Shown: one piece after another, positions 16,526 through 53,222 of the stretch
Layout of the letters: each line of letters begins with the position of its first letter
Numbering within the stretch: the first letter of the stretch is position 1
Source: Candidatus Dormiibacterota bacterium
GTDB lineage: Bacteria > Chloroflexota > Dormibacteria > Aeolococcales > Aeolococcaceae
Length of the DNA stretch: 64,000 bases
NCBI GenBank assembly: GCA_963697085.1
Contig: CAVOMR010000002.1
Coordinates: forward strand, 464,442 to 528,441
Direction of reading: 5' to 3'
Position numbers and translations under genes: made by a program
Notes under the pieces: model-generated
Told to the model about the DNA's origin: nothing
Seen by the model: only the letters and a program-made list of their open reading frames with translations
Database searches by the model: none

Positions 16526-20892
<4,367 letters not shown>

Positions 20893-30030: not shown

Positions 30031-31122
30031 GTGATGCTCCTCGCGCACCGCGTCCCGGGCCGCAGCCTGCAGCTTGCGACGATCGCGCTCGACCTCGCAG
30101 TGTCGAGCGGGCTCGTGTACCTCACCGGGGGATACAACTCGGACCTCGCCATCACGTTCTTCATCGTGGTGATCGCGAGCAGCCTGCGGTTCGGACTCGC
30201 CGGCAGCATGGCGTGCGCGCTCGTCGCCGGGTTGTCGTACTTCATCGTCGGATTCAACGTCGCCAATCACCATCTCAACACGCCGCTCGTCGATGCGCTC
30301 GTGTCGCGTCTGTTCCTGCTGTTCGTCGTTGCGTTGAGCAGCAACCTGCTTGCCCGCGAGTTGGTTGGCGAGCGCGATCGTCAGGTGCGCCGATCCATCG
30401 AGCTCGAGCACGCCGCGTTCGCGGAGCTGCGCGAGGTTGACCGGATCAAGAGCGAATTCATGATGCTGGCATCACACGAGCTGCGCACGCCGCTCACAAA
30501 GATCAAGGCGTGGCTCACGCTGATGCACGACGCGGGCGATCGTCTCCCGCAGGATGCGCGCGACGAAGGACTGCACGAGCTGCGACTGGAGGCCGAGCAC
30601 CTCGCGCGCCTCACCGACAACCTGTTGTGCATCGCGCAGCTCGAGTCAGGTGAGATCCGTCTCAAAACAGCCGCGGTCGACCTCGAGAATGTCTTCCGTG
30701 AGGTGATCGCGCGGTTCGTCGAATCCGCCGACCACGATCGCTTCGCGATCACCGTCGCGCCGGATGCGCAGCGCGTGCTCGCAGACCACGAGCGCCTCGC
30801 GCTGGTCGTCGCCTGCCTCATCGACAATGCATTGAAGTTCTCACCCGAGTCGGAGCCCGTGCGCGTCACGACGTACCGCGCCGTGAACAAGGTGCACGTC
30901 GAGGTGCGCGACAACGGACGGCGCATCCCGGACAGCGATGTCGACCGCGTGTTCGCATCGTTCTATCAGGTGGAGTCGCCGCTGTTGCGTCAGCGCGGTG
31001 GCTTCGGTGTGGGCCTCTATCTCGCCCGGCAGCTCATCGAGCGCATGGGCGGCAGGATCTGGATCGACAACTCGCGCGCCAGGGGCAACACGTTCGTGGT
31101 TGCGCTGCCGGTGCACGTGTGA
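30031..31122 (+). CDS. Membrane-bound sensor histidine kinase (HisKA + HATPase_c); N-terminus probably extends to about 29877 across a frameshift near 29955
   Basis: TM helices (ITFFIVVIASSLRFGLAGSMACALVAGLSYFIVGF) then EFMMLASHELRTPLTKIKAW (H-box)...IDNALKFSPES...VRDNGRRIPDSDVDRVFASFYQ...GGFGVGLYLARQLIERMGGRIWIDNSRARGNTFVVALP; upstream MGIERTIELSRWMVLIFAAVANNFP (frame 0) fits as an extra TM segment. Confidence 0.85.
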   Translation: MMLLAHRVPGRSLQLATIALDLAVSSGLVYLTGGYNSDLAITFFIVVIASSLRFGLAGSMACALVAGLSYFIVGFNVANHHLNTPLVDALVSRLFLLFVVALSSNLLARELVGERDRQVRRSIELEHAAFAELREVDRIKSEFMMLASHELRTPLTKIKAWLTLMHDAGDRLPQDARDEGLHELRLEAEHLARLTDNLLCIAQLESGEIRLKTAAVDLENVFREVIARFVESADHDRFAITVAPDAQRVLADHERLALVVACLIDNALKFSPESEPVRVTTYRAVNKVHVEVRDNGRRIPDSDVDRVFASFYQVESPLLRQRGGFGVGLYLARQLIERMGGRIWIDNSRARGNTFVVALPVHV

Positions 31123-31234: not shown

Positions 31235-32095
31235 TTGCGGCGGTGGGCACGTTTGGTGCGCTCGACCCGAAGTGAAGGACAGATGACGACGTTCACCGAA
31301 TCCATCCTGGCTCCGCTCGGACACGGCGTGGTCCGGGCCCCCGCGGAAGCGACGGTGCTGGTCATCGACGATGACCCGGCGATGCGCGACATCCTCTCGA
31401 CGGTTGCACAGCAGCACGGGTTCGGCCTGCAGTTCGCCGAGGACGGCGCCGAAGGGCTCCGCCTTGCCGAGCAGAGCGACGTCGACCTCATCCTCCTCGA
31501 CCTCAGCCTGCCGGGCATGCCCGGCCTGGACGTATGCAGGCGGCTGCGCGGGGCCGGCGTCGAGGTGCCGATCATCATCCTGTCGGCAAGCACCGACACC
31601 GTCGATGTCGTCGTCGCGCTCGAGATCGGGGCCGACGACTACATCGCGAAACCCTTCGAGATCCGCGAGCTGGCGGCGCGAGTCAACGCGAAGCTGCGCC
31701 GGCAACGGACCACGCAGTCGCAGGTGCGTCCTGGGCGTCTCAAGTTCCCCGGCCTCATCGTCGACATCGGCAGGCACGAGGTCCTCCGTGACGGTGAGTC
31801 GGTGAACCTCACCCCCACCGAGTTCGATCTCCTCGCGCTGCTCTCCGCGTCACCGGGCCGGGTGATCTCGCGCTCCGAGATGATCCAGAAGGTCTGGGGC
31901 CAGGGCGCCGACCTGGACCTGCGCAGCGTCGACGCGCACGTCTACCGCCTGCGCAGGAAGATCGAGCCGATCGGCCCGAGGCCAACCTACATCCACGCGG
32001 TCCCCGGGATCGGCTACCGCTTCGAGCGCCGGGGCCTCAACGAGCGGCTGTCGCGGAGCGCGACGGAGTCCGAGGAGACCGGTCTAGCCAGCTGA
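31235..32095 (+). CDS. OmpR-family response regulator (REC + winged-helix Trans_reg_C)
   Basis: ATVLVIDDDPAMRDILSTVAQQHGFGLQFAEDGAEGLRLA...LILLDLSLPGMPGLDVCRRLR...IIILSAS...DDYIAKPFEIRELAARV...VNLTPTEFDLLALLSASPGRVISRSEMIQKVWG...IHAVPGIGYRF; real start probably MTTFTESIL (31283). Confidence 0.88.
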   Translation: MRRWARLVRSTRSEGQMTTFTESILAPLGHGVVRAPAEATVLVIDDDPAMRDILSTVAQQHGFGLQFAEDGAEGLRLAEQSDVDLILLDLSLPGMPGLDVCRRLRGAGVEVPIIILSASTDTVDVVVALEIGADDYIAKPFEIRELAARVNAKLRRQRTTQSQVRPGRLKFPGLIVDIGRHEVLRDGESVNLTPTEFDLLALLSASPGRVISRSEMIQKVWGQGADLDLRSVDAHVYRLRRKIEPIGPRPTYIHAVPGIGYRFERRGLNERLSRSATESEETGLAS

Positions 32096-32455
32096 CGGTG
32101 GCGGCACGCTCAACCTGGCGCGGTTCGTCAGGCTGCGCGGCAGCGGCCGGCGGGGCTCGGCGTCCTCGACGAGGACCAGTTGCCCGCGTTCGTTCAGTGT
32201 CGCCGGGCGGGCTTCAACGATCTGACCACGGAGGAGCGAGAGCGGGCGGCCGTGCGGTCGCTGGAACTCGAAGCACACGGCTTCGTGTCCGTCCCAGAGC
32301 CGGCGTCTCGAGGAGCCGGTGAAGACGGCAAGGCTCCGCGTCACCCGACGCTGCTGCGGGGTACGCAGGCTGTACGAGATCCGGTACATCTCACCACGTC
32401 GCAGCTGGACGCCCTCCACCTCTCCGTGATGGTCTGCACTTTGTGCATTCATCAT
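32084..32455 (-). CDS. Hypothetical protein
   Basis: 123-aa ORF, no recognisable domain; competing plus-strand ORF 32180..32506 looks less protein-like. Confidence 0.3.
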   Translation of the reverse strand: MMNAQSADHHGEVEGVQLRRGEMYRISYSLRTPQQRRVTRSLAVFTGSSRRRLWDGHEAVCFEFQRPHGRPLSLLRGQIVEARPATLNERGQLVLVEDAEPRRPLPRSLTNRARLSVPPPSAG

Positions 32456-32563
32456 TACTTTGGAAGTATTGACGCGTTCTGTGCTCCGGCCTCCGACCCC
32501 GAGTGACGCTCGAGTGACAGAGCGCCATCGTGTCGCCCGCCGTCCATCTCAGGGCGACCTGCC

Positions 32564-33388
32564 TTGGCTATCGAGTTGCGGTGCAAACTATCGTGCAGGG
32601 GACAAGTGACCACATCCATCGCATGCGTGTCCGGAAAGGGCGGGGTGGGCAAGACCACGACCGTCATCAACCTCGGCGCCGCGCTCGCCGAGCAGGGCAA
32701 ACACGTCCTGCTCGTCGACTGTGATCCGCAGTCGAACCTGACGAGCGGCGTCGGGCTCGACCCGTACGACGAGCGCCCCGGGATTGCAGCGGTCATGGCC
32801 GGCAGCGTCGATGCCGCCGCCGCGATCGTCGAGACGGGCTGGGCGAACCTCTCGGTGCTCCCCGCGTCACCCGACCTCTCGGCCGTCGAGGGCGAGCTTG
32901 CCTCCTCCATCGACAAGGAGCTGGTCCTCCGTGACGCGCTGCGCCGCGACGGCACTCGCGCCACCTTCGACTACGTCCTGTTCGACACGCCGCCGAGCTT
33001 CGGCTTTCACACCATCAGCGCGCTGGCGGCTGCCAGCGAGGTCCTCATCCCGGTGCAGATGTCCGGGTTCGCCATCCGCGGGCTCAAGGAGGTGCTGCGG
33101 ACCGTCCACCTGGTGCGCAGCCGCCTCAATCCGGACCTCGCGATCCTCGGGATCGTGCCGACCTTCGTGAACCTCCGCACCAAGTTCAGCCGTCAGCTGC
33201 TCGACGGGCTCTGCGAGCTCGCCAACATCCGCGTCTTCGCGACCGTGATCACGCCGACCGTCAAGCTCCAGGAAACGTCGCTCGCCGGGGTCCCGATCAC
33301 CGCGTACGCATCGTCCTCGAAGGCCGCGGCCGCGTATCGTGAGCTTGCCGGCGAGGTCGTGGGCGGCGAGGTGGAAGCCGGTGTCTGA
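32564..33388 (+). CDS. parA: ParA/Soj-family partitioning ATPase
   Basis: [46 protein letters not shown] (deviant Walker A)...[28 protein letters not shown]...; start probably the GTG at about 32606. Confidence 0.88.
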
Positions 33389-34058
33389 GATCGAGGAGCG
33401 ATCGGCGCAGGGGATCAACGGTCCGCCGCTGTCGGGCCCGATGGCACGCTGGCTCGCACCCACCTCGGAGTCGCGCGTCGAGCGGATCCCGATCGATGCC
33501 GTGCACGACCGGCCGTGGTGGCCGGGCAGTGACGTCGATGCGGCGACGCTCGGGGCCCTGAAAGCGAGCATCGCGTCCCGCGGGATCATCGAGCCCCTCC
33601 TGCTCCGCCGCCGCGGGAGTGACAGCTTCGAGGTCGTCTGCGGTTCGCGCAGGCTGCGCGCCGCGCGCGAGCTCGGTCAGGCGCATATCCCGGCGATCGT
33701 TCGCGAGCTCTCGGAGCGCGAGGCCCTGCTGGTCGCCGCATGGACCACCGTCGAGCGAAGGCAGCACACCGGTGATCGCACCGCGCTCAGCGAGCGCCTC
33801 CTCGCAGCCGGGTTCACCCAGGACGAGACGCGAGTGCTCGCCGACCAGCCGTCGCTCGCCGCCGGGCAGCCGGTGGTCCACCGTCCCGCCCCGTCCTTCG
33901 TGCTCCGCCCCGAGCCGCTCTCGCGTCCACGACGGTTCGCCGCCGACATCGCGTTCGAGCTTCCCCATGCCGAGGTCCTGCCACTCATGGCGCCGGAGGC
34001 GCTGGCCGCCGCGCTCGCTGCCCTTGACGGAGTGAGCCCGGTCGCCCTCGTGCGGTGA
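33381..34058 (+). CDS. Compact ParB-like protein (ParB N-terminal/Srx domain + HTH, no canonical C-terminal dimerisation domain; Pro-rich tail)
   Basis: [120 protein letters not shown]; GTG start overlaps the parA stop. Confidence 0.75.
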
Positions 34059-34558
34059 GCACTGTCCCGCGCCACTCCGAGGAAGAGCTCCGCCAGCAGT
34101 GGGCGTTCCTCGACGCGCTCGTCGAGCGTCAGGCCAGCAGCTTGAAGTCGGGAGTCCAGGATCCCGAGGAGGAGGATCTCCCGGTGGCGGCGGTGCAGAT
34201 CGACGGCCACTACCAGGAGGAGATCTCCGCGCTTACGCAGCGGGTGACCAGCCTCGAGAGCGAGCGCACCTCGCTGCTGCGCCGCATCGATCTTTCGGAG
34301 CAGGCGCGCATGGCGGCCGAGACCGCCCGGATGGCCGCCGAGGCAGCGCGGGTCTCGGCCGAGCGCGCCCTCGCGCAGGAGCGGCTCGGTGCCGGACTGG
34401 CCGCAGCGCCGCTCGCCTCGGTCGCCAGTCCGCCGGCCCCGGTGACGCCGCGGGTCCCTCAGCCTCCAGCCGCCACTTCCCAGCCGCTGCCGGCGCGACC
34501 CGTCGCCACCGCCCCGCGTGCCCGGCGCCGGAGCTGGTGGCAGCGATTCAGGGAGTAG
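34055..34558 (+). CDS. Coiled-coil protein with Pro/Ala-rich C-terminus (possible partition-complex accessory protein)
   Basis: [26 protein letters not shown]...ISALTQRVTSLESERTSLLRRIDLSEQARMAAETARMAAEAARVSAERALAQERL then PPAPVTPRVPQPPAATSQPLPARP; start overlaps the ParB-like stop (GTGA). Confidence 0.5.
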   Translation: MSTVPRHSEEELRQQWAFLDALVERQASSLKSGVQDPEEEDLPVAAVQIDGHYQEEISALTQRVTSLESERTSLLRRIDLSEQARMAAETARMAAEAARVSAERALAQERLGAGLAAAPLASVASPPAPVTPRVPQPPAATSQPLPARPVATAPRARRRSWWQRFRE

Positions 34559-35351
34559 CCGCCCCCGCGGGCTTCGGCCGGCGTCCCTGCGCCATGCCGA
34601 CGAACTGGCGCAGCGCCTCCGTCGGCGAGGGGCGCGTCGCAACCTCGCGAAGCAGCATCTTGCTCTCGGTGAGGAGCTCGGCGTCGGGCAGCTCGCCGCG
34701 GCCGGAGGTCGCGACGACCCACCCCGGCGAGTACCAGAGCACGGTCTCGAATGCGAGGCCGCTCAGGGTCAGGCCGTTGAGGAGCGAGTTGGTGATTCGT
34801 GACAGCGGCCGTTTCGCGTTGGTGACAACGATGCCTCGGATCCGGTCGAGCACCTCGAGCTGCTGAGCCAGTCCGACGGTCAGCGCCGCCGCGCGCAGCG
34901 AGAGGATGTCGAGCGCGGTCGGGACCACGATCCGGTCGGCGGCGCCCATCGGCCCGATGAGCGACGGCTCGTGGGGGTGGGTGTCGAGCAGGATGATGTC
35001 GCAATCGTCACGAACGTCAGCGAGCATCTCATCGAGCTGCTCCTTTGACGGTGATTCGTCATTCAGGCTTCGATGTGACGCCACCGTTCGGATCCCGAGT
35101 GGGTGATCGATGAGCGCGTCGCGGAGGCTGACCCTTCCGTGCAGCACGTCGATGACCGTGATATTGCGCTTCGCGCGTTCCAGCGCATTGCTCAATCCGC
35201 CTGTCGGATCGAGGTCGATGGCGATGACTCGGAGACCACCGGCCGCCGCGGCGGCGCACAGCGCATAGCTGCTGGTCGTCTTTCCGACACCACCTTTTAG
35301 CGACGCTATCGTGATGACTTCTGCGGGCACGTCGGTAGAATATCCGCACAT
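34548..35351 (-). CDS. Second ParA/MinD-like ATPase (orphan, divergent from the giant acidic protein gene)
   Basis: [47 protein letters not shown]...CDIILLDTHPHEPSLIGPMGAADRIVVPTALDILSLRAAALTV...; start chosen at MCGYS inside track ORF 34548..35402. Confidence 0.8.
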   Translation of the reverse strand: MCGYSTDVPAEVITIASLKGGVGKTTSSYALCAAAAAGGLRVIAIDLDPTGGLSNALERAKRNITVIDVLHGRVSLRDALIDHPLGIRTVASHRSLNDESPSKEQLDEMLADVRDDCDIILLDTHPHEPSLIGPMGAADRIVVPTALDILSLRAAALTVGLAQQLEVLDRIRGIVVTNAKRPLSRITNSLLNGLTLSGLAFETVLWYSPGWVVATSGRGELPDAELLTESKMLLREVATRPSPTEALRQFVGMAQGRRPKPAGAATP

Positions 35352-38300
35352 GGCCACTGCGGCGCCCCATGTCAAGCTACTGCGACAGCTTGCCAGCGCC
35401 AAAGATGATTATTTGAGTGGCGCGTTCGACATTTCCTGGGACGGCGCCAAAGCAACGCTCTACCTGGTCTTCGGACGGCCAAGCCACGCTGTCTTCGATA
35501 CGGACCAGGCGCAGATCGAAGGGGAAGCAGCGATCGACGCGCTGCTCGCCGAGCTGCCGAGAACGTTCGTGGTTTCGGACTGGCGTCGCGCGATGTCACC
35601 GCAGGAAACGCTTTCGATCTCCATCGACGAGCTTGCAGGCCCGTTTGTGCGGCTTGCGGGCTCCTACGCAGACGATCCCGTCAGCGATGAGAACCCCGAA
35701 TGGTGGAGCTCCGATGACAGCTCGCCGGACCTCGCGTTCGGACTCGCGGACTTTCCGCTGCTGCCCGGCGGACGTCCGCTCTGGGCGGAAACCTCCCCGG
35801 AAAACGTCAACCTCGCCGAACGTCTCGCAGAGCTGCCTCCGTCCATCCTGATCCTCACCGGCGCGAAGTTGCGCGCGGCGGCGGTCGTGAGCGGCGGCGA
35901 CATCATCGATGCGGTCTGGATCGACGATGAGGACCAGGCTCGCGGTGAAGCCGCCGGCATGGCGATTCTCGGCGCCAGCAAGGGGACGCTCGCCGGGTAC
36001 GCACTCGACGACCCGCGCGTTGCGGAGGCGCTCACCATGCTCTGGCGCCTGCCGCGCGCCGTCGACGGCATCGAGATGGCATGGCTCGACCCCGCGTCGA
36101 TGCTGGCGGCATTTCGGGCGGACGGGCTTGACCGTGTGCTCGTCATCGATGCGCCAGTGCGCGGCATCGCCCTCTTCAGTCGTGGTGGCCTCGTGGCGGT
36201 GTACTCGGAGACCCAGCGTTCGGCGGTCGCGTCGCCGGAACGGCTGCGGTCGCTCCTGTCGCAGGCGAGAGGACGGCTCACCGTCATGGAGCGCAAGCCG
36301 CGGCCGGTCGCCGCGGGTGCGGCGCACACGATCCCGAGCGCGGTCGACTTCTTCTCCGTGGTCGCGGAACCCGAGCCTGAGGCCGAGGCTGCAAGCGCTG
36401 CAGAGCCTGAGGCGGCCAGCGAACACGCGGCGCCCGCTGTGGCGGATGCGACGGCGGTGCCTGCCGTCGCGGATGAAGTGGCGACCGCTGTCGCCGAGCC
36501 CGAATCCGCCGAGGCGACCGTCAGCGAGCCTGCCGGTCGGACCGGGCCGGCTCAGGGCTCGGTGGCAGAGGAAGCGGCTGAGACTGAGCCCGGCGCTGAG
36601 GCACCCGCCCAGGCCTTTGCAGCTGCGGAGCCCGCCGCCGGTACGACGGACACCGAGCCGGAATCTGCGACGACCGAGCCGGAATCTGCGACGACCGAGC
36701 CGGAATCTGCGACGACCGAGCCGGCCGTGGAGCACGCGACCGAGGCTGTGGCGACTGGCCCCGAAAGCGAAGCGGACGCTCTCCCGCCGCCTCCTCCAGG
36801 AGACGCCGGCGTCGCAGCCGCCGAACACGCACCTCCCCCGCCCGCGCCGGAAGGCGTCGCGGAGCCCGCGCGCAAGGCCAAGCGACATTGGTGGGCGTTT
36901 GGCACGCGGCGCAAGAGCTCGACACAGGCACCATCAGAGGCAGACAGGGCGGCCGCCGAAGCGGCCGCGGCCCGGGAGGCGGCCGAGGCCGCGTCGTCCG
37001 CGGGCTGGGGAATTCGCCAGCTCGATGCCGGTGCTCCGCCGCCCTGGACGCGCCCACGCGACTACGTCCTCGGCGACACCGAGACTGCTGACGACGGCAC
37101 GGAGGCTCCGCCGCCGGCGCCCGAAGCCGCAGCCGAGGAGACGGCCACCCAGGAGCCGGCCTCGACGTGGTCGGTGATCGAACCGGGAGCGACCCACACT
37201 CACTGGCCTGTCAGCGCCACCACCGAGGCGAGCGGCGACGCGCAGCAAACCGAGCCGGCGGCGGCGAGCCCCGCCGACGAGGTCTCGGCACCGCCCGCGA
37301 CCGAGCCTGCCGAAGGCGAGGCGGCGCCCAGCGGTGAACCCGATGAGAGCGACGCCGCATCCACCGGCGAACCGGCCGCAGCAGCAGGCGCCCCCGAAGT
37401 CGAAGCGGTTGCTGCGCATGCAGAGGACACGGGCAGCACGGAACCCGCTTCGGTGGCAGCCCCAGCGTGGTCCGCGCGAGAGGTGATCGCCGATTCAGTC
37501 AGCTGGTACCAGCCGCCGCAGCACCCCGATGCCTCGTCCGAGGCTCCCGCCGATGCAGCGCAGGACGCTGCAGAGGACAGTGGGGCCGGCGATGCCGTTG
37601 CCGGGGTTGACCACGAGCTTCCTGCGCCCGGCGACGACGAGCAGGAGACGCTCGCCGCGGCCGAGCACGAACCCGCTGCCGAAGACGACCAGAAGGCCCC
37701 TGCGGAAGCCGACCACGACGTCGCCGCGGCCGAGCACGAACCCGCTGCCGAAGCCGACCACGACGTCGCCGCGGCCGAGCACGAACCCGCTGCCGAAGCC
37801 GACCACGAGGCCTCGACGGAAGCCGACCACGACGTCGCCGCAGAGAGTGCCGACATCCCTGCAGCAGAAGCCTCGCCCGACACAACTGGCGAGCAGCATG
37901 AGCACGACGAAGGCGAGGAAGAGATCGAGCCTGTCGCTGATGCGCATCCCGAGACGGACACGGCACGTGATTTCTGGGCCGAGTTTGCGACGCCCGATCA
38001 CGACGCTTCAGCCGAGGATCAGGAGCAGGAGCCCGAACCGCTGGCGGTCACCGAGACGACGGCCGGCACCGACGAACATATAGAAGATGAGTCCGAGGCG
38101 GCAGTCGAGCCTGATTCGGAAGCTGAGCACGCGCCCGTCGCCGCCGACGATGCCGAGCCTCTGAAGCGCAAGTCGTCGGGAAGGACCTTCGCACCGTGGA
38201 ACTGGCCGCTTGCCGAGGCGGAGACGCCGGTCGCTCCCGCTTCCGTCGGGAGGCCGGCCCCGGTCGTCGACGAGGAGCCCGCGCTCGTCACGGCAGAGGC

Positions 38301-38634
38301 CGCGACTGAGCCGGCGCCACATGACGCGGAACCGGACGACCATTCCGCCGCGGATCAGAGCTTCTTCCAGCGCGACGAGCCGGTCGGTTCACAGTTCGTC
38401 GACTTCGACGAGGTTCGCAAGGAACTGGTGCAGATCGGCGTCGTGTGGCTGGGTGAGCGCAACGCCATCCCGGTGACCGCGCTCCTCGTGAAGACACGTT
38501 CCACCATCGACGACTTCGTCGCGACCATCGACACGATCCGAGGCCTGCACGTGGACGGACAGGACCCCGCATCGATTCAGGCGATGGCGCGCGAGATGCA
38601 CCAGCAGGCTGCAGAGCGGCTCTGCGGAGCATGA
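35311..38634 (+). CDS. Giant acidic protein (1107 aa): N-terminal about 330 aa with 2-3 DUF4388-like repeats, about 650-aa Ala/Glu/Pro/Asp-rich disordered region with tandem repeats, conserved about 100-aa C-terminal domain
   Basis: N: LSGAFDISWDGAKATLYLVFGRPSHAVFDTDQAQIEGEAAIDALLAELPRTFVVSDW; GGDIIDAVWIDDEDQARGEAAGMAILGASKGTLAGYALDD; GLDRVLVIDAPVRGIALFSRGGLVAVYSE; middle: TEPESATTEPESATTEPESATTEP, AAAEHEPAAEADHDVAAAEHEPAAEADH; C: FVDFDEVRKELVQIGVVWLGERNAIPVTALLVKTRSTIDDFVATIDTIRGLHVDGQD; likely start MATAAPHVKLL (about 35350). Confidence 0.7.
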   Translation: MMTSAGTSVEYPHMATAAPHVKLLRQLASAKDDYLSGAFDISWDGAKATLYLVFGRPSHAVFDTDQAQIEGEAAIDALLAELPRTFVVSDWRRAMSPQETLSISIDELAGPFVRLAGSYADDPVSDENPEWWSSDDSSPDLAFGLADFPLLPGGRPLWAETSPENVNLAERLAELPPSILILTGAKLRAAAVVSGGDIIDAVWIDDEDQARGEAAGMAILGASKGTLAGYALDDPRVAEALTMLWRLPRAVDGIEMAWLDPASMLAAFRADGLDRVLVIDAPVRGIALFSRGGLVAVYSETQRSAVASPERLRSLLSQARGRLTVMERKPRPVAAGAAHTIPSAVDFFSVVAEPEPEAEAASAAEPEAASEHAAPAVADATAVPAVADEVATAVAEPESAEATVSEPAGRTGPAQGSVAEEAAETEPGAEAPAQAFAAAEPAAGTTDTEPESATTEPESATTEPESATTEPAVEHATEAVATGPESEADALPPPPPGDAGVAAAEHAPPPPAPEGVAEPARKAKRHWWAFGTRRKSSTQAPSEADRAAAEAAAAREAAEAASSAGWGIRQLDAGAPPPWTRPRDYVLGDTETADDGTEAPPPAPEAAAEETATQEPASTWSVIEPGATHTHWPVSATTEASGDAQQTEPAAASPADEVSAPPATEPAEGEAAPSGEPDESDAASTGEPAAAAGAPEVEAVAAHAEDTGSTEPASVAAPAWSAREVIADSVSWYQPPQHPDASSEAPADAAQDAAEDSGAGDAVAGVDHELPAPGDDEQETLAAAEHEPAAEDDQKAPAEADHDVAAAEHEPAAEADHDVAAAEHEPAAEADHEASTEADHDVAAESADIPAAEASPDTTGEQHEHDEGEEEIEPVADAHPETDTARDFWAEFATPDHDASAEDQEQEPEPLAVTETTAGTDEHIEDESEAAVEPDSEAEHAPVAADDAEPLKRKSSGRTFAPWNWPLAEAETPVAPASVGRPAPVVDEEPALVTAEAATEPAPHDAEPDDHSAADQSFFQRDEPVGSQFVDFDEVRKELVQIGVVWLGERNAIPVTALLVKTRSTIDDFVATIDTIRGLHVDGQDPASIQAMAREMHQQAAERLCGA
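36652..36723 (+). repeat. Coding tandem repeat, 3.4 x 21 nt (accgagccggaatctgcgacg = TEPESAT) inside the giant acidic protein gene
   Basis: Read directly: ...gacaccgagccggaatctgcgacgaccgagccggaatctgcgacgaccgagccggaatctgcgacgaccgagccggcc. Confidence 0.9.
37661..37848 (+). repeat. Coding tandem repeat, about 4 x 45 nt (gccgagcacgaacccgctgccgaagccgaccacgacgtcgccgcg = AEHEPAAEADHDVAA) inside the giant acidic protein gene
   Basis: Protein shows AAAEHEPAAEDDQKAPAEADHDVAAAEHEPAAEADHDVAAAEHEPAAEADHEASTEADHDVAAE; nucleotide repeats visible at 37661-37848. Confidence 0.85.
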
Positions 38635-38638
38635 TCCG

Positions 38639-39082
38639 GTGAGCAGCCAGGTGGTGAGCTGGATCCAGGATCACTCGGTGCTGATCCTGGCGGCGCTCGC
38701 CGTGGTCGAGGGGATCATCTGTGCCTCGCTGCTCCGCATGGCCCGGCACGCGCGCCACGAGATGAAGGCCGCCCAGGCCGCCGCCATCGAGGCGGCACGA
38801 GCCGCGGCGCTCGCGGCTCCCGGGGCCATCGACCCCGAAGCGGTGCTCGCGCTGCTGCGGCAGGGGCATGCCCCGACGCTCGACAATGTGTACGCGATGA
38901 TGCGCCGGCGCGAGGCCGAGTCCGAGGCGGCGGTGCCGGCGCCCGTGGCGAAGCCAACCGGATCCGGGAAGGCACAGTCAGGGGGCCGGGGAGCTCAGGC
39001 CGTGGCACCGGCGACGGCGCCCGCGAGCACATCGCTGACCAGTTCCGAAGTCGAGGAGCGCCTGCGCCAGTACGAGCGCTGA
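38639..39082 (+). CDS. Small single-pass membrane protein with Ala-rich helical cytoplasmic part
   Basis: VSSQVVSWIQDHSVLILAALAVVEGIICASLL (TM) then ARHEMKAAQAAAIEAARAAALAAPG...; GTG start 5 nt after the giant-gene stop. Confidence 0.5.
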   Translation: MSSQVVSWIQDHSVLILAALAVVEGIICASLLRMARHARHEMKAAQAAAIEAARAAALAAPGAIDPEAVLALLRQGHAPTLDNVYAMMRRREAESEAAVPAPVAKPTGSGKAQSGGRGAQAVAPATAPASTSLTSSEVEERLRQYER

Positions 39083-39090
39083 CGGCCGGG

Positions 39091-39756
39091 CTACCTCGGG
39101 TGCTTTCTCCGCTCGAGCGAAGCGGGGCGACCCCGGCCACAGGCCTCGGCAGCGGCAAGGAACGCCATGGCGACAGCATCCTCGCGCAGACGCGCGATCG
39201 CATCCTCTGTTCTGTGGAGGACGGCGACGCTGTTTCGAATCGTCCACCCGGAGCGTCCGGACATGGTGGGCGGCAGGAGCGCCTCGCCCGGGGAACGGAC
39301 CGACCAGCTCCTGGGCTGCGCCGACGTCGAGGTCGATTCGCCGCGTGAGGAATACGGTCGCGACGCCTCGGCGGAGGCACCCGGGCGCTGCACCTCCTCG
39401 AAGACGTTGTCGGCCTCGGGGATCGCGATGATCGGCCAGCTGACCTCCGCCACCTCGGGCGCGATCTCGGTGTGCGCGACGCCCGCGAGGGCGAACAGTG
39501 CCGCGGCGAGGTCTTCGCCCGAATCGAAGGCGCTCCCCTCTCCGAACCACTCGTCGTCCGGAACCTGGGCCACCCCATTGCCGGCCACGGTCACGGTACT
39601 CATCACAGCCACCTGATCGTACCTGTCGGAGTTAACAACTCGTGGATGTCTCGAACGCTCGCGGAATCGAAGCTGTATCGAACCGGTTGCTCCCGTCAGA
39701 TCGTCAAGCGCCACCGGCCACAATCGGCGCGGAACCGCTATCTGACCGAATTCCAA
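39091..39756 (-). CDS. Hypothetical protein (acidic, no recognised domain)
   Basis: 221-aa minus-strand ORF between two plus-strand genes; high-GC codon usage plausible, but function and reality uncertain. Confidence 0.3.
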   Translation of the reverse strand: MEFGQIAVPRRLWPVALDDLTGATGSIQLRFRERSRHPRVVNSDRYDQVAVMSTVTVAGNGVAQVPDDEWFGEGSAFDSGEDLAAALFALAGVAHTEIAPEVAEVSWPIIAIPEADNVFEEVQRPGASAEASRPYSSRGESTSTSAQPRSWSVRSPGEALLPPTMSGRSGWTIRNSVAVLHRTEDAIARLREDAVAMAFLAAAEACGRGRPASLERRKHPR

Positions 39757-39769
39757 GGAGCACCCTCAC

Positions 39770-40939
39770 GTGAGCATGGCAGCCGTCCCGCACAAGCTCG
39801 ACAGCCGGTATCTCGAGGCTCTCGGCCCACTGCGCCCGCTGGTCGATGACGACAGCCTCACCGAGATCATGGTCAACGGACCGGAGATGGTCTACGTCGA
39901 GCGCAAGGGCAAGATCCTTCTCACCGACATCCGTTTCGACGACGAGGCTCACCTCATGCGGGTGATCGACACGATCGGCGCCGCCGTCGGCCGCCGCATC
40001 GACTCCCGCACGCCGCTCATGGATGCGCGCCTCCTTGACGGATCCCGCGTGAACGCGGCAATTCCGCCGGTCGCACTCGACGGTCCCATCCTCACCATTC
40101 GTAAGTTCAGCAAGGATCCATACCAGGTCTCCGACCTGATCGGATTCGGCACACTGACGCAGGAAGCCGCGGCCTTCATCCAGGCATGCGTGCTCGCCCG
40201 CGCGAACATCCTCGTGTCGGGTGGAACCGGCACCGGTAAGACAACGCTCCTCAACGTCTGCTCGGGATTCATTCCCATCGATGAGCGCATCGTGACCATC
40301 GAAGACGCAGCCGAGCTCCAGCTGCACCAGGAACACGTCTGCCGTCTTGAGTCACGTCCCCCGGACGTCAACGGCGAAGGACGCATCGCGATCCGCGAGC
40401 TCGTCATCAACTCCCTGCGCATGCGGCCTGACCGCATCGTTGTTGGAGAGTGCCGTGGCGGTGAAGCCCTCGACATGCTCCAGGCGATGAACACCGGCCA
40501 CGACGGGTCGCTCACCACGATCCATGCGAACAGCCCACGCGAGACCCTGTCGAGGCTCGAGACACTGGTCCTCATGGCCGGACTCGACTTGCCCCTCAAG
40601 GCAATTCGCCAGCAGATCGCCGGCGCGATCAACCTGATCATCCAGCTGAACCGTCTCAAGGACGGATCGCGCAAGGTCGTCTCCATCACCGAGGTCATCG
40701 GCATGGAGGGCGAGATGATCACCGTGCAGGAGATCTTCAAGTTCGAGTCCCGCGGCGCGGATCCGTCGACCGGAAAGATCATCGGCGACTTCGAGCCGAC
40801 GGGCATCCGGCCGCGCATCATCGACAGGCTGTTCGACATGGGCATCCCGTTGCCGCCGCGCCTCGCGCAGATCTTCCCGGACCGCCGCCAGGTCGGTGTC
40901 GCCACCGAGAAGAACGGCCACCTCAGCGGAGTCGCGTAG
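39770..40939 (+). CDS. CpaF/TadA/VirB11-family secretion ATPase, compact form (389 aa, lacks the long N-terminal domain)
   Basis: LVSGGTGTGKTTLLNVCSGFIPIDERIVTIEDAAELQLHQEHVCRLESRPPDVNGEGRIAIRELVINSLRMRPDRIVVGECRGGEALDMLQAMNTGHDGSLTTIHANSPRETLSRLETLVLMAG; Walker A, Asp box, Walker B, His box. Confidence 0.88.
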   Translation: MSMAAVPHKLDSRYLEALGPLRPLVDDDSLTEIMVNGPEMVYVERKGKILLTDIRFDDEAHLMRVIDTIGAAVGRRIDSRTPLMDARLLDGSRVNAAIPPVALDGPILTIRKFSKDPYQVSDLIGFGTLTQEAAAFIQACVLARANILVSGGTGTGKTTLLNVCSGFIPIDERIVTIEDAAELQLHQEHVCRLESRPPDVNGEGRIAIRELVINSLRMRPDRIVVGECRGGEALDMLQAMNTGHDGSLTTIHANSPRETLSRLETLVLMAGLDLPLKAIRQQIAGAINLIIQLNRLKDGSRKVVSITEVIGMEGEMITVQEIFKFESRGADPSTGKIIGDFEPTGIRPRIIDRLFDMGIPLPPRLAQIFPDRRQVGVATEKNGHLSGVA

Positions 40940-40955
40940 CCACCTCCGACCGGGC

Positions 40956-41588
40956 ATGTCTCGGAAGGGTGCGCGCGATCGAGTGCTCGTGCCACGGCGT
41001 AGCGCACTCGTGCCGTGCCTCGCACTGCCGTTGCTCGCCGCGTGCGGCAGTGGCGCCACACCCACGGCGACGGTGACCGCGGCGCCGGTGAGCATCGCGT
41101 CGACGCCGACGCCGGCGCCGACCGCAACTCCGATCCCCGAACCGCCGATCGGTGACGCGTGCGTCGTCGGCACCTGGACCGTCACCACCGGAACGATCGT
41201 GGTCGCGTTCCAGACGCAGAAGGGCGCGGTCATCGCCGTCTCAGTCACGGGCGGAGCCGGCATGTTGGAGCATCTCTTCAGCAACGGGTCGCTCGTGGAA
41301 GAGCTGACCGGTACGCCGTTCACGGGCACCGCCAAGGGGTATCGCGTGGTCGTGCGTATGCGGGGCGAGATGCGCTCGCCGATCACCTTTCTGAGTGGGT
41401 CCGCGGCACTCGAGCCCATCGACCTGTCGCAGGCGCACGCGACCATCTCGGTCGACGGCGGGGAGACGAAGAATCTGCCGCTCGCGAACTACGAAATCCT
41501 CACGTACACGTGCACCGGAACGTCACTGACGGAGTCCGACGGCAACGGCAACAGCTATACGTACCAGCGGGTTTCGACGACTCCCTGA
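40956..41588 (+). CDS. Secreted lipoprotein, unknown function
   Basis: MSRKGARDRVLVPRRSALVPCLALPLLAACGSGATPTATVTAAP (signal peptide + lipobox LAAC) then Thr/Pro linker and a beta-rich domain. Confidence 0.6.
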   Translation: MSRKGARDRVLVPRRSALVPCLALPLLAACGSGATPTATVTAAPVSIASTPTPAPTATPIPEPPIGDACVVGTWTVTTGTIVVAFQTQKGAVIAVSVTGGAGMLEHLFSNGSLVEELTGTPFTGTAKGYRVVVRMRGEMRSPITFLSGSAALEPIDLSQAHATISVDGGETKNLPLANYEILTYTCTGTSLTESDGNGNSYTYQRVSTTP

Positions 41589-41657
41589 CCTGGTGGGACG
41601 GGTGCCACGTGGGCGCGCAGCGGACCCTCAAGCGCAGTCACAGCGTGCCGGTTGTCG

Positions 41658-41759: not shown

Positions 41760-41902
41760 GGTCGTCATCTACTGGCACTGACCGGCGGGCGCGGGGGATG
41801 TCATGTAGATAGCCCGCGTGCGCCTCTTCATAGGCAGCGGACGCGTTATCCCGGAACGCAGCTTCCGCGAACCAGACCGGCTCCACTTTAAGGGATGGTG
41901 CG

Positions 41903-43323: not shown

Positions 43324-43869
43324 GTGTGGGTCGGGATCATGATGCGGGCAGCAATGGCTGGCGAGCAGCGGGCGCTGAGAGACGAGGGAGACGCGAGTTT
43401 CGAAGCGTGTTTCACTGCCGAGGAGCACCGTCTTTTTGCGATCGCCATGTCGATCCTACGCGACCCGGCAGAGGCTCAGGACGCGACCCAGGAGACGGCA
43501 TTGATCGGATGGCGGCGGTGGAGTTCACTCCGGGATCCCGCGCGCTCAGGGGCGTGGCTGGCAAAGATCTGCGTGCACCACTGCGTGCGGCGCAAACGCT
43601 CGCTCGTCCGGTGGCTCAGTTTCGACCCATCCGTCCAGCAAGTTCGTGCGGAGGCAGATTTCCATATGCAGGATGGGGGGCGATTTGCCGATATGGACCG
43701 AGCCTACACACGGCTTTCGGCGCGCCAGCGCGCCGTCGTCAGCCTGCACTATCACCACGGCTACACGCTCGTCGAATGCGCGGATCTCATGGGGTGCAGC
43801 CCCGGATCCGTGTCGCAGCACCTCGCGAGAGCGCTCCGGTCGTTGCGAAGGGACCTCAGCGATGAATGA
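43324..43869 (+). CDS. ECF-type RNA polymerase sigma-70 factor
   Basis: Region 2: FEACFTAEEHRLFAIAMSILRDPAEAQDATQETALIGWRRW; region 4: LSARQRAVVSLHYHHGYTLVECADLMGCSPGSVSQHLARALRSLRRDL. Confidence 0.85.
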   Translation: MWVGIMMRAAMAGEQRALRDEGDASFEACFTAEEHRLFAIAMSILRDPAEAQDATQETALIGWRRWSSLRDPARSGAWLAKICVHHCVRRKRSLVRWLSFDPSVQQVRAEADFHMQDGGRFADMDRAYTRLSARQRAVVSLHYHHGYTLVECADLMGCSPGSVSQHLARALRSLRRDLSDE

Positions 43870-50240: not shown

Positions 50241-50270
50241 CAGGGGATGTACTAAGGATGGACGAGGTTG
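50241..50270 (+). repeat. 30-bp direct repeat, copy 2 (caggggatgtactaaggatggacgaggttg), at the junction between inserted DNA and the middle HNH fragment
   Basis: 25/30 identity with 46687..46716; 3' part encodes N-L-V of the HNH gene on the minus strand; the related core gaccaggttgg also occurs at 41751..41761. Confidence 0.7.
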
Positions 50271-50365
50271 TCGAGCTCGGTGGGACCGCCATCTGCCCAG
50301 TGGATGATGTGGTGGCCGTCGGTCCATTCAATCGGCCGGTCGCATCCCGGGAAACGGCAGCCCCG
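50252..50365 (-). pseudogene. Middle fragment of the REP13E12/DUF222-type HNH endonuclease gene (RGCRFPGCDRPIEWTDGHHIIHWADGGPTELDNLV-HP*), fused in frame to truncated istB
   Basis: Canonical HNH motif CxFxGC...HHIxHWxxGGxTxLxNLV; preceded without a stop by IstB ...TSNRGFGDWNQ. Confidence 0.8.
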
Positions 50366-51019
50366 TTGATTCCAGTCACCGAAGCCGCGGTTACTGGTGA
50401 GCACGATCGAGGCCTTCTCGTAGCGCCGGCTGACCATCTGAAAGATCCAGTTCGCCGACGCCTGATCGAGGGGCAGGTAGCCGAGTTCGTCGACCACCAG
50501 CACTGACGGACCGGTGTAGGTGCGCATCTTGTAGCTGGCCGTGCCCTCGAGGTGCGCCGACTGGAGGTTGGCCACCAGGTCGGCGGCGGATGTGAAGTAG
50601 GTGCGATAGCCGGCCTCGGTGGCGGCGATGCCGAGTGCAATGGCGAGATGCGATTTGCCCACACCGGGTGGCCCGAGCAGGATGACGTTGCGGCGCTCCT
50701 CGACGAAGCGCAGCGTGGAGAGTTCGGCGAGCACCGTGCGGTCGAGCGAGGGCTGGAAGTCGAGGTCAAACTCGGCGAGCGTCTTGTGAATCGGGTAGCG
50801 CGCAAAGCGCAGCCGTCCGCGCAGCCGACGTGCCCGGGTTGCATCCGCTTCGATCGCCATGAGGCGTTCCAACACCTGCGTCGCCGAGGCCTGCTCGCGC
50901 GTGCCGCGGTCGAGCTCGTCGGCAAGATGCTCTGCGGCGGCGCTCATTTCGAGGTACGCAAGATGTTCGCGCAGGCGCTGATACGCGCTGGGGTCCGAGC
51001 TGCTGGCACGCGGGCTCAC
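50366..51019 (-). CDS. istB: IS21-family transposition helper ATPase IstB (about 219 aa retained, C-terminally truncated)
   Basis: RNVILLGPPGVGKSHLAIALGIAATEAGYRTYF (Walker A)...SVLVVDELGYLPLDQASANWIFQMVSRRYEKASIVLTSNRGFGDWNQ. Confidence 0.85.
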
Positions 51020-52047
51020 AACGCCACCTCGTAGGCGCTGAGCGGACGCACCTCAACCTGCTCGCCGAGCTGACGTTGCGCGGCATCGACCACGTGCAGA
51101 ACGGGGCGCGCAGCGTCGTCGCCGGCAAAGCGTTCGAGCAGATGGCGGGGCACGGCGCTGAGCAGACGGCGTTCCTCGGCCCAGGCCTCGCCGATGATCC
51201 GCTGGGTGGTGCGGTGGCGGCGCGGCAGGATGCGCTCCCGGATCCAGCGCAGCGCGAAGGCGTCGTAGTCGGCGATGCTCGGCCGAGGCGGCAGCACCTG
51301 GCCGGTGAGCCAGCAGCGAAAGCTCTGCTCGACCTCACGGTTCTCGCGTTCGACCTTGCCTTTGGTTTTGGCGCGGTATGGCCGGCACGCACGGGGCACC
51401 GTGCCCAGCAGTGCGCAGAGGTCGATCCACTCGGGGACGAACAGTGGGCCGTCGGCGGCGTGGTTGCAGAACACCGTATCGCGGTCGGTGAGCAGCTCCC
51501 GCGTGACCCCACCGAGGTCGTCGAGGCAGCGCACCAGGCGCTCGAAGCTCACCTCCCGCGTGCAGCTGGCAGCGATCCGGATCGCGGGCATGCGGCTGTG
51601 CCCGAGGATCGCCACCATGGCGTGGAGCTCGACCAGCTCCTCGCCGAGCGGCCAGCTCCCGATGTGCTTCCAGTCCGCCTGGGTCTGCACACCGGGCAAC
51701 GTCTCGAAGCGCACCTCGGGGTCATGTGGCAGGGCGGGCCGGAGCGGACGGACCTGACGCAGGAAGGTCCAATAGCTGCCCGCATAGCCGTATTCGGTGC
51801 GCAGCTCGTGGTGCAGGTCGGTGCTGCGCAGCACCGGACAGACCAGCAGCCGGCATTCGATGTGGGCCAGCTGCGCTTCGTTGAGCGGGTGGCGCGGGGC
51901 GCGCTGCGGGTACCGAGACGGGCGCTCGGCGTCGAGCTCCCTGCGCACCGTGCGCCGGTTCAGCTTGAAGTGGCGGGCGAGCGCACTGACGCTCCATCCG
52001 TGTTGGTGCAGGACATGCAGTTCCATCCAGAGTTCCTCAAACTCCAC
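51016..52047 (-). CDS. istA: IS21-family transposase IstA
   Basis: MEFEELWMELHVLHQHGWSVSALARHFKLNRRTVRRELD (HTH)...WKHIGSWPLGEELVELHAMVAILGHSRMPAIRIAAS...TDRDTVFCNH...YRAKTKGKVERENREV (DDE domain). Confidence 0.85.
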   Translation of the reverse strand: MEFEELWMELHVLHQHGWSVSALARHFKLNRRTVRRELDAERPSRYPQRAPRHPLNEAQLAHIECRLLVCPVLRSTDLHHELRTEYGYAGSYWTFLRQVRPLRPALPHDPEVRFETLPGVQTQADWKHIGSWPLGEELVELHAMVAILGHSRMPAIRIAASCTREVSFERLVRCLDDLGGVTRELLTDRDTVFCNHAADGPLFVPEWIDLCALLGTVPRACRPYRAKTKGKVERENREVEQSFRCWLTGQVLPPRPSIADYDAFALRWIRERILPRRHRTTQRIIGEAWAEERRLLSAVPRHLLERFAGDDAARPVLHVVDAAQRQLGEQVEVRPLSAYEVAL

Positions 52048-52190
52048 GGCGGTCCCTCTTGGTGCTGGTGGCGTTGAACACCGTCCAGCTTGCCCGGAGG
52101 GACTGCCTTTTTTCCGATCACGATCAGGTCCGATCCACCCCTGAGGACCTGTGCACTATTGTGTCAGAACTGCGCATATTCTGTAAAGAG

Positions 52191-53222
52191 GTCGCGCACC
52201 ACCAGCGCAGTGCGGATGTGCACCGGGATGGTGCGCGCGGCGCGACCCACCGAGAGCGGCACCACCGGCGTCGTGACTGCCGAGAGCCACGCATCGGTAC
52301 CATCCGCACTATCCGAAGACAGCGGCACGGTCACCTCGGTCTTGACTGCGTCGCAGGCGATACGGCGTGCGGTCTCAGGATGGATCGGCCCCGCACCCTG
52401 GAGCGTCGCGGCCTCCGCATCCGCATCATTGCGCAGCGCTGGAGCACTCACCGTGACGGTGAGATGCGGCCGCTGCCCGTGCATCTCGGGAAGCGCAGCA
52501 GAGCGCAACTGCGAGGCAGCATGGTCGACCAGCGCATCCGCACGACGCTGCGACGCACTGCGCGTGTCCCCAGGACGGGGCATCTCGGTGATCGCATCGA
52601 GCCAGGTCTTGACCAGGGCGCCGCTTTCGGTGTCGAACTGCCCCTGGGAGAACCACTCACCGCCGTACGACTGATCGAGGTTGAACCAGCGGCGCTCGTG
52701 GGCACGGTTGTCAGCGGCAAGGACCCCGTCGGGATCGACCCGGAGCCGGGTTGCCTGGATGACGGTGCGCATCGGCCCGGCCTCGAGGGTCTCCGCCGCT
52801 CCCACCAGGATCATCTCCAGTGGAGCGATCTCCGCCACCCCGACCTCCTTGGCGAGGGAGGCAATCTGGGTCACGTTGCTCAACGAGGCACGGCCGGCAC
52901 GAGCGCTGTCGAGCGTGGCCGGCAGTTCGCTCAGGGTCCGCGCCAGATGCACGCGTTCGGCAGCCGCCTTCCCGGTCATGGCGCAGTGATGGCGCACCCA
53001 GGAGGTCGTGCTCACGCCTCCATCGGCGAGCGCACCGTGGGCGCGGTCGAAACGTCCCAGGCGACGCAGGCACTCAGCCTCGAGCCGGTCGATCAGCAGC
53101 CGGATGTCGATCACGTCCGCGCCCAGTGCGTGCGTCGAAAACCCCTCGATGGGCTCGGCGACGAGAGCATCAACCGCGCTCGTGAGACGGTCTCGGGCAT
53201 CGGGAATTGCGAACGCTTCCAT
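52191..53222 (-). pseudogene. 5' portion (DUF222 domain) of the REP13E12-type HNH endonuclease gene, interrupted after ...ALVVRD by the IS21 element
   Basis: MEAFAIPDARDRLTSAVDALVAEPIEGFSTHALGADVIDIRLLIDRLEAECLRRLGRFDRAHGALADGGVSTTSWVRHHCAMTGKAAAERVHLARTLSELP... typical DUF222; track ORF 52164..53222 ends LFTEYAQF*, which is IS-derived. Confidence 0.8.

Follow-up and report, generated by a model that had tools for sequence, protein, structure and literature searches.

We analysed a 64-kb stretch of DNA, hereafter the window, from a bacterium of Candidatus Dormibacterota (assembly GCA_963697085.1, contig CAVOMR010000002.1). It carries a gene cluster in which two ParA-type ATPases are encoded together with a very large acidic protein, here called the hub protein, and with hexameric ATPases of the CpaF/TadA type. 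A preliminary description, drawn from the sequence alone, had listed seven genes and taken the locus for a ParA-based positioning module lying next to rpoBC and two-component genes. All seven genes exist in the frames claimed, as judged by plots of GC content at third codon positions (GC3), translations, Pfam and NCBIfam matches and sequence matches to the PDB. The neighbours were borne out as well, rpoB and rpoC being assigned from the size of their open reading frames (ORFs) and from RpoC motifs, the two-component pair by domain searches. Three genes, orf123, orf221 and that of a second CpaF protein, had been overlooked. The module is real, conserved and uncharacterised, and it is centred on a scaffold and CpaF ATPases, not on ParA.

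The hub gene lies on the plus strand at 35350..38634. The reading frame does comprise the 1107 codons reported before, but with its start at the ATG at 35350 the product has 1094 amino acids (aa). Three alpha/beta modules occupy about aa 1-320, the acidic linker, which is disordered, spans about aa 321-1000, and a helical bundle makes up the C-terminus (about aa 1001-1094). The protein has no match in Pfam, NCBIfam or PADLOC and no meaningful PDB fold match, and is thus not a known cell-division or FHA protein, as had been considered beforehand. We found 73 homologs, and a profile search of 1.84 billion representatives brought the family to 294 clusters in several divergent subfamilies. Homologs are mostly 430-720 aa long (orthologs range from 430 to 1094 aa) and share one architecture: the N-terminal region (about 320 aa) is conserved, the linker is disordered and differs greatly in length, and, as expected from the preliminary description, a conserved C-terminal domain follows, which measures about 90 aa and ends with HxHAAERLCGA in Dormibacteria orthologs. 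The AlphaFold2 model of the short-linker ortholog P0016 has a pLDDT of 85.5.

The longest linkers belong to the window protein and its nearest relatives (loci L002, L005 and L007). In the window the linker is indeed acidic and disordered, and at about 680 aa slightly longer than the 650 aa first estimated; it is rich in Ala, Glu, Pro and Asp, its net charge is -137, and TEPESAT and a 15-aa DH/AE unit recur in it as short tandem repeats. It also holds a basic Trp motif, KAKRHWWAFGTRRKS, and GWGIRQ (aa 507-523 and 551-556; window positions 36870-36920 and 37000-37015), which resemble the tail RSWWQRFRE of the coiled-coil-like protein described below (34520-34555) and the motif GWTIRNS of orf221 (39180-39200). 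When compared against the presence of partner genes, the basic-Trp and GWxIR motifs of the linker turned out to be conserved solely in the window's own clade.

Back to back with the hub gene lies parA2 (34548..35330, minus strand), encoding a ParA/MinD-like ATPase of 260 aa. The gene called earlier at 34548..35351 is real, but it starts at the GTG at 35330, not at 35351 or 35402. ParA2 matches AAA_31 (E 4.6e-21), MipZ, MinD and, weakly, the Ssd/CpaE model TIGR03815 (24 bits, with a cut-off of 154). Its GTG and the ATG of the hub gene are separated by 19 bp. This spacer, GTCGGTAGAATATCCGCAC, including GTAGAATATC, is kept across most of the phylum, one clade having GGATAATCC. In the putative promoter region of the two genes (35314..35349), ATGACT-16-TAGAAT on the plus strand ends 8 nt before the hub ATG, being the sole sigma70-like promoter found within 31.9-41.7 kb, and on the minus strand TATTCT stands 6 nt before the GTG of parA2. 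The arrangement suggests that both genes are leaderless, with overlapping divergent -10 boxes.

Five nucleotides after the hub stop codon begins the gene of a single-pass membrane protein (TM; 38639..39082, plus strand), which is probably co-transcribed with the hub gene. One hydrophobic segment near the N-terminus, identified by eye and not by a predictor, precedes a conserved AAPGGIDPExVxxLLRxGxxPTLD stretch. The apparent gap before the first cpaF gene is occupied by orf221 (39091..39606, minus strand), whose GC3 phase fits its strand and whose orthologs can be aligned; its product matches no family; it carries an acidic DEWFGEGSAFDSGEDLAAAL motif, is disordered in the middle and has a conserved helix at the C-terminus. 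None of the three small proteins of the cluster had a match in any library.

CpaF1 (39770..40939, plus strand; T2SSE, E 1.9e-61) is a short CpaF/TadA-type hexameric ATPase of 389 aa, which aligns to residues 147-488 of Caulobacter crescentus CpaF (PDB match, E about 1e-116). Formerly described as truncated, it is in fact naturally short, as the short form (373-389 aa) is found in the three divergent orthologs of L037, L059 and L074. Its longer paralog CpaF2 (53597..55252, minus strand; 551 aa; T2SSE, E 3.8e-64) is 57% identical to it. For both proteins the best NCBIfam model is TIGR03819, 'TadA family conjugal transfer-associated ATPase', with scores (311 bits for CpaF1, 326 bits for CpaF2) under the cut-off of 373. 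The cpaF2 gene is syntenic in about 50 loci, where it is convergent with cpaF1 and usually follows it after some 0.3-4 kb (up to about 5.5 kb). The window has between the two genes a variable island of about 12.7 kb (40900-53500) with lipoprotein-like genes, an extracytoplasmic function (ECF) sigma factor gene (43324..43869), genes for a PD40 beta-propeller, a repeat protein and a methyltransferase, IS21 istA/istB (50252..52047) and a DUF222/HNH gene (52164..53222).

Core and accessory genes

Next, we compared the cluster with its relatives, all of which come from Candidatus Dormibacterota metagenome-assembled genomes (MAGs). One genome per species was scanned, which gave 63 loci; the denominators used below (61, 54 and 48) are the numbers of loci with enough flanking sequence. 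The block proved syntenic in these 63 species genomes. The order p678, TPR gene (minus strand), sensor histidine kinase (HK), response regulator (RR), orf123 (minus), ParA1, ParB-like protein, coiled-coil protein, ParA2 (minus), hub, TM, orf221 (minus), CpaF1 is kept, and it persists down to 42-48% identity of the hub N-region. Synteny of this extent rules out chance.

A divergent parA2 adjacent to the hub gene, as predicted in the preliminary description, was found in 60 of 61 loci. The ParA1, ParB-like and coiled-coil genes are present together in 48 of 54 loci and orf123 in 52 of 54, while TM (46/48), orf221 (45/48) and CpaF1 (45/48) accompany the hub gene downstream. Median identities in distant loci amount to 86% for CpaF1, 78% for RR, 75% for ParA2 and 69% for ParA1, compared with 48% for the hub N-region, 45% for the ParB-like protein and 36% for orf221, so the ATPases are under the strongest constraint. 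The secretion-type ATPase, which had looked like an odd partner, is the most constant and most conserved one.

Loci of reduced gene content are of special interest. ParA1, the ParB-like protein and the coiled-coil protein are missing at six of 54 loci; in L034-L036, which are devoid of all three, orf123 abuts parA2. L037 holds only RR, ParA2, hub, CpaF1 and CpaF2, and L059 has the ParB-like and coiled-coil genes in the absence of ParA1. At L061 there is no ParA2 beside the hub, the contig ending inside the hub gene. L074 (22 kb; hub 37% and CpaF1 86% identical) contains no ParA gene whatever. Its order is HK, RR, orf123 (minus), hub, TM, a 197-aa gene (minus), CpaF1, CpaF2 (minus), CAP, ABC, FtsX, where the 197-aa gene occupies the position of orf221 on the same strand and has undetectable similarity to it. 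L013 and L043 gave no intact CpaF1 call. Linkage of the hub to both CpaF proteins is nevertheless close to universal among the Dormibacterota loci and extends to the one without any ParA gene.

Gene content is nested: the hub and the two CpaF proteins make up a near-constant core, ParA2 is a widespread addition and the ParA1 cassette a further one. The ParA genes look like later additions. ParA had been taken for the defining element, which does not hold in view of a core without ParA in L074, the missing ParA2 of L061 and six further loci without ParA1, ParB-like and coiled-coil genes.

Distant members of the hub family

Homologs outside the orthologous group show comparable associations. In L068 (GC 40%), genes for a ParB_N protein and a ParA are divergent from that of the homolog P0302, and in L071 a ParA gene is divergent from P0325, so that the pairing of a ParA-like gene with the hub recurs far beyond the Dormibacterota orthologs. 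In L066/L067 (GC 32%) the genes are co-directional, ParA and ParB-like preceding P0317, and a VirD4-like coupling protein is encoded close by. The ParA proteins of L066/67, L068 and L071 are 31-34% identical to ParA2 (E 1e-31 to 1e-34) and match ParA1 far more poorly. The ParB_N protein of L068 and L066 carries a helix-turn-helix (HTH). The low-GC element of L066/67, which may be conjugative and belong to a distant lineage, also encodes a Dam methylase, a PDDEXK nuclease, a protein of 577 aa with a Walker A motif and another of 503 aa and unassigned family.

A hub paralog of Dormibacterota (P0288 and P0273; loci L072/73 and probably L065) is encoded divergently from a GAF-GGDEF gene, which hints at a link to cyclic di-GMP signalling. 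In L072/L073 (GCA_027365835.1, the same MAG as L059) it is found near a pentapeptide protein and a CpaE-like receiver-ParA protein, in L065 beside a sortase and a VirD4-like type IV coupling protein (T4CP). CpaE-like genes occur in L069 and L072, and L070 has a CpaF-like gene 5 kb from the hub homolog.

A further subfamily, which retains modules 2-3 and the C-terminal domain only, was represented by 35 loci from a metagenome scan using an alignment of four sequences. In 12 of them it lies directly beside a VirD4-like T4CP. In about 10 of the 35 it is adjoined by a sortase, a 507-aa TadZ-like protein (KGGVGKT), two proteins of about 300 aa (judged by eye to span the membrane several times) and a TadA/VirB11-like ATPase. 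The cluster of L076 additionally contains CpaB-like, M23 peptidase and VirB4-like genes, and an M23 gene is also present in L082. A phmmer comparison of the window's small proteins with the proteins of this L076 cluster, which resembles Tad and type IV secretion systems (T4SS), yielded matches for CpaF proteins only.

These loci establish ParA/MinD/TadZ-type ATPases and secretion-superfamily hexameric ATPases as the recurrent partners of the hub family; both associations, with ParA and with TadA/T4CP, are seen repeatedly in lineages that are unrelated to each other and range in GC content from 32% to 74%. Since distant homologs are embedded in Tad/T4SS-like clusters, the Dormibacterota module is better called a scaffold for CpaF/TadA-type ATPases with layers of ParA.

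Distant members also bear on the nature of the first hub module. P0326 (86.9 bits) and P0335 (62.4 bits) have at its position a bona fide DUF4388/PATAN domain (about 1e-17 with the family profile). P0317 scores 23.9 bits against the Pfam model PF14332, and weak DUF4388 matches are seen in 8 of 13 hub orthologs (E up to 5; best 7.2e-5). The first module may thus be weakly DUF4388/PATAN-like.

The ParA1 cassette and the genomic surroundings

ParA1 (32606..33388, plus strand; 260 aa), most likely starting at the GTG at 32606, is a Soj-type ATPase with the deviant Walker A motif of ParA proteins (KGGxGK[ST]) and a DPQSNLT box. It matches AAA_31 (E 7e-50) and Soj/ParA entries of the PDB (1e-42 to 1e-47). 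The ParB-like protein (33441..34058, plus strand; 205 aa), whose ATG start was placed where conservation begins, matches ParB_N alone (E 2.9e-18). It keeps GSRRLRAA but has T at both positions that align with E and N in the ENLQRE box of Spo0J; the GxRR pair varies among orthologs, being RQ in L031 and QR in L059. A conserved N-terminal LARWLAPTS stands where ParB has its ParA-stimulating peptide. Alignment with Spo0J extends no further than the first HTH helix, beyond which the protein continues as a Pro-rich tail; neither a recognition helix nor a C-terminal dimerisation domain was detected by domain search or by alignment with Spo0J and orthologs. The protein had been described as an N-terminal ParB domain plus an HTH, lacking the dimerisation domain, which is correct except that the HTH is a remnant without recognition helix. 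More than 120 orthologs have 205-233 aa, and all of the best 120 homologs are short.

The coiled-coil-like protein (34055..34558, plus strand) starts on the stop codon of the ParB-like gene, just as the preliminary description stated. Its ortholog alignment, from which the coiled-coil-like character was read (no coiled-coil predictor was used), shows a conserved SEEELxxQWAFLDxLVERQA motif at the N-terminus, then a helical region that varies in length, and finally a tail, RSWWQRF / HGFWHFGRR, which is basic and rich in Trp. The canonical parS site TGTTTCACGTGAAACA was searched for with up to three mismatches and was found neither in the 64-kb window nor in 1.09 Mb of the 63 orthologous loci; a site of non-canonical sequence would have escaped this search. 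The locus is not a canonical parABS system, because the ParB-like protein is devoid of the HTH recognition helix and of the catalytic E/N and because no parS was found; an ordinary chromosomal parAB, considered earlier, is therefore not what we see. No dnaA or rsmG was noticed among the window ORFs scanned, a scan that did not take in every ORF of the window. We infer that the ParB-like protein is an adaptor of ParA1 rather than a centromere binder, and the coiled-coil protein co-translated with it is a possible scaffold.

Upstream of parA1 lies a direct repeat, GTGACG-N5-GTGACA (32503..32519, plus strand), which occurs nowhere else in the window in exact form; orthologous loci have a related repeat at this position. 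Its 11-bp periodicity would fit an OmpR-type regulator such as the adjacent RR, making it a candidate binding site. The RR (31235..32095, plus strand; Response_reg and Trans_reg_C) is found in 53 of 54 loci, and the HK (30031..31122, plus strand; HisKA and HATPase_c) upstream in 52 of 54. The RR is a candidate regulator of the cluster, and the HK/OmpR pair probably controls its expression. Between the RR and the cassette lies orf123 (32084..32455, minus strand), coding for a small basic protein (pI 11.4) modelled as an SH3/Sm/WYL-like beta-barrel. A PilZ domain was considered for it and dismissed, the model being a barrel of the former kind without PilZ motifs.

Upstream of the cluster are p549 and p678 (25005-28195), paralogous genes for large membrane proteins about 25% identical to each other, which are syntenic even in L074. 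The longest ORF call of p678 overlaps the end of p549, and its true start is probably near 26650. Further upstream, the str/S10 ribosomal-protein, fusA and tuf operons (319-11521, minus strand) diverge from rplJ/L-rpoB-rpoC (11883-20759, plus strand), with about 360 bp in between. Most bacteria have these ribosomal-protein/tuf and rpoBC operons in the same orientation. The rpoC gene (16526..20759) is frameshifted at 19395-19410 inside a universally conserved motif, where GACTTCGGGATACCTCAC seems to hold one extra T, and the high-GC3 frame changes at about 19380. This is most likely an assembly indel, a warning that other gene calls in the same genome may contain indel errors.

The window has a GC content of about 67%. 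Rfam and tRNA scans of it gave no matches, and PADLOC defence models gave only short local P-loop matches, with no defence system recognised. Contigs assigned to Gaiellaceae, Acidiferrales and Saccharimonadales MAGs (among L006, L007, L038 and L056) carry the locus at 89-95% identity to the window, and L038, labelled Binatia, carries the full syntenic locus at 49% identity. The four contigs are probably mis-binned Dormibacterota DNA.

Relation to known systems and possible role

The preliminary description could name no system to which this combination of genes corresponds. Our comparisons, besides placing distant homologs within Tad/T4SS-like clusters, do relate it to TadZ-TadA and PATAN-PilB pairs; these known relationships are combined here with an undescribed hub family. 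As in Tad loci with TadZ/CpaE and TadA/CpaF, including the mycobacterial Ssd (Rv3660c)/Rv3659c locus, a ParA/MinD ATPase is encoded with a CpaF/TadA hexameric ATPase. TadZ localises the Tad machine, and ParA2 would be functionally TadZ-like. The differences from Tad are substantial, however: ParA2 has no receiver-like domain, neither TadB/C, CpaB, Flp pilin nor prepilin peptidase is encoded nearby, two convergent CpaF paralogs are present, and the constant partner is a large hub protein absent from described Tad loci.

The second relationship is to the PATAN (DUF4388) regulators PixE, PixG and PatA-type proteins of Synechocystis, which likewise combine a PATAN-like module with an ATPase of the PilB/GspE superfamily. 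A PATAN domain by itself binds the N-terminal domain of PilB1, and also PilC (bioRxiv 10.1101/2021.06.11.447907); the contact with PilB1 suggests a possible mechanism for the hub. Unlike these regulators, the hub has no receiver domain, and it has two more alpha/beta modules, a long linker of acidic and disordered character and the helical bundle at its C-terminus. The window protein remains under the Pfam threshold, and the partner is of the CpaF and not the PilB type.

Looser parallels exist as well. HubP/FimV proteins of Vibrio and Pseudomonas are very large, highly acidic and repeat-rich, and recruit several ParA-like ATPases together with type IV pilus components. The likeness is a functional analogy in composition and partners only: there is no homology, LysM, FimV C-terminal motif or Pfam match in the hub, and the TM segment is found on a separate small protein. 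In McdAB, PomXYZ and PpfA/TlpT, too, the partner of a deviant Walker A ATPase is a coiled-coil or low-complexity protein. In Myxococcus, PadC is a ParA adaptor on a scaffold, and the PadC-bactofilin-ParA system offers a putative counterpart to a ParB/Srx-fold protein apparently without DNA binding beside a coiled-coil protein. No sequence relation to McdB, PomX/Y, TlpT or PadC is detectable, the cargo here appears to be secretion-type ATPases, and ParA is dispensable in some lineages. Canonical ParABS shares with the cluster a Soj-like ParA and a ParB N-terminal fold with GxRR box, but differs in having parS, a recognition helix, a dimerisation domain and the catalytic E/N; as stated above, dnaA and rsmG were not noticed among the window ORFs scanned.

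We tentatively favour, at somewhat less than even confidence, a chromosomally fixed, phylum-wide module built on a hub protein that organises two CpaF/TadA-type motor ATPases. The alpha/beta modules of the hub would bind the N-terminal domains of CpaF hexamers, in the way that the PATAN domain of Synechocystis proteins binds PilB1. Tethering or oligomerisation of the hub at the membrane might fall to its helical bundle together with the small TM protein and orf221, with the acidic linker serving as a spacer or a multivalent platform. ParA2, presumably co-regulated with the hub through the overlapping divergent leaderless promoters, would set where or when the hub assembles, in the role that TadZ/CpaE plays for TadA/CpaF. 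The cassette of ParA1, degenerate ParB_N protein and coiled-coil protein would be a later add-on giving a further spatial layer, its ParB-like member acting as an adaptor comparable to PadC with bactofilins and not as a centromere binder. Expression of the whole would probably be controlled by the neighbouring HK/OmpR pair.

Several observations weigh against this proposal. ParA2 is an ATPase domain alone, whereas TadZ/CpaE proteins are defined by a receiver-like N-terminal domain. The window hub itself does not match DUF4388 (PF14332, gathering score 25 bits) at E up to 5, and internal repeats in the N-region of the hub gave a weak signal (best hhalign E 0.0023) and were set aside; of the DUF4388-like N-terminal repeats announced earlier, what stands are the orthologs and the two distant members cited above. 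In L054, ParA2 and the hub are kept while no CpaF homolog is found on the 14.9-kb locus, 11 kb of downstream sequence being covered. Gene order conserved within one phylum can partly reflect inheritance instead of function. Finally, T4SS/Tad structural genes are lacking: no TadB/C-like, CpaB-like, T4CP or VirB4 gene was found in the window or the 63 loci (tblastn with L066 and L076 proteins in the case of T4CP and VirB4), and a six-frame scan of the same sequences for the Flp prepilin motif (G/xxxxEY) gave no match. T2SSF (TadB/TadC) was absent among the window ORFs scanned, and the putative membrane proteins of about 300 aa from L076 have no homolog in the window or the 63 loci; such platform proteins may be encoded at another site of the genome. 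With no platform, pilin, T4CP or VirB4 genes found, the machine that the ATPases would power is missing locally.

A bolder version of the proposal, which we consider rather doubtful, regards the hub family as an undescribed cross-phylum class of scaffolds that couple ParA/MinD positioning ATPases to CpaF/TadA and VirD4 hexameric ATPases. In Dormibacterota it would serve a chromosomally fixed, platform-less two-CpaF machine with a new role, e.g. as a HubP/FimV-like polar hub, expressed from overlapping divergent leaderless promoters.

The proximity of distant hub homologs to VirD4-like T4CP, VirB4-like, sortase, M23 peptidase and TadA/VirB11-like genes, the ParA and HTH-bearing ParB_N proteins beside the homologs of L068 and L066, and the conjugal-transfer label of the best NCBIfam model for both CpaF proteins would all suit a cluster left over from a monoderm conjugative or Tad-like T4SS element and since domesticated, in which the hub, ParA2, the ParB_N protein and the TadA-like ATPases retain a function in transferring or taking up DNA or in partitioning an element. 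We regard such a remnant as unlikely. No T4CP, VirB4 or sortase homolog was found in the window or the 63 loci, both CpaF scores fall short of the model's cut-off, and the cluster, under strong purifying selection, occupies the same chromosomal position between the same housekeeping neighbours throughout the phylum. Relaxase families were absent among the window ORFs scanned against Pfam, no search aimed at relaxases having been made, and the same ORFs contained no cluster integrase; the loci were not searched for either.

Chromosome segregation coupled to division-site selection, with ParA1 and the ParB-like protein segregating DNA, ParA2 as a MinD/MipZ/Ssd-like division regulator and the hub as a polar landmark, also seems improbable. 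Mycobacterial orphan ParA/MinD homologs reportedly act in septum placement, and the proposal would account for the Soj-like nature of ParA1, the LARWLAPTS stretch at the position of the ParA-activating peptide, the mostly retained GxRR and the MipZ, MinD and weak Ssd matches of ParA2. It is contradicted by the lack of parS in the window and the 1.09 Mb of orthologous loci, by a ParB-like protein with replaced catalytic E/N and neither recognition helix nor dimerisation domain, and by the six of 54 loci without the cassette together with L074, which manages without any ParA; moreover, it leaves the tight link to two CpaF ATPases unexplained. Very improbable, in our opinion, is that the parA1 operon, parA2, the hub operon and the cpaF genes are unrelated units which have no common function and are neighbours by descent only. 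All Dormibacterota loci do come from a single phylum, p678, TPR, HK/RR and the ABC transporter are syntenic too, and cassettes can be lost independently. Mere descent is nevertheless hard to reconcile with the recurrence of hub-ParA and hub-TadA/T4CP associations in unrelated lineages, with the starts of parA2 and the hub gene lying 19 bp apart under overlapping -10 boxes, and with translational coupling at the ParB-like/coiled-coil and hub/TM junctions.

To our knowledge, no member of the Dormibacterota, a phylum abundant in soil, has been cultured, and most of their cell biology is still unexplored. The cluster is one of the most conserved non-housekeeping loci of this phylum. Through it, function can for the first time be approached in a family of at least 294 sequence clusters that lacks a Pfam or NCBIfam model and whose members occur again and again, in several lineages, with ParA-type and TadA/VirD4-type ATPases. 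If the hub binds the motors, it would be a candidate for a missing accessory component of monoderm Tad/T4SS-like systems and a new example of recruitment of ParA ATPases for positioning of membrane machines, and the link between PATAN and pilus motors would reach from cyanobacterial phototaxis to Tad and conjugation-type machines.

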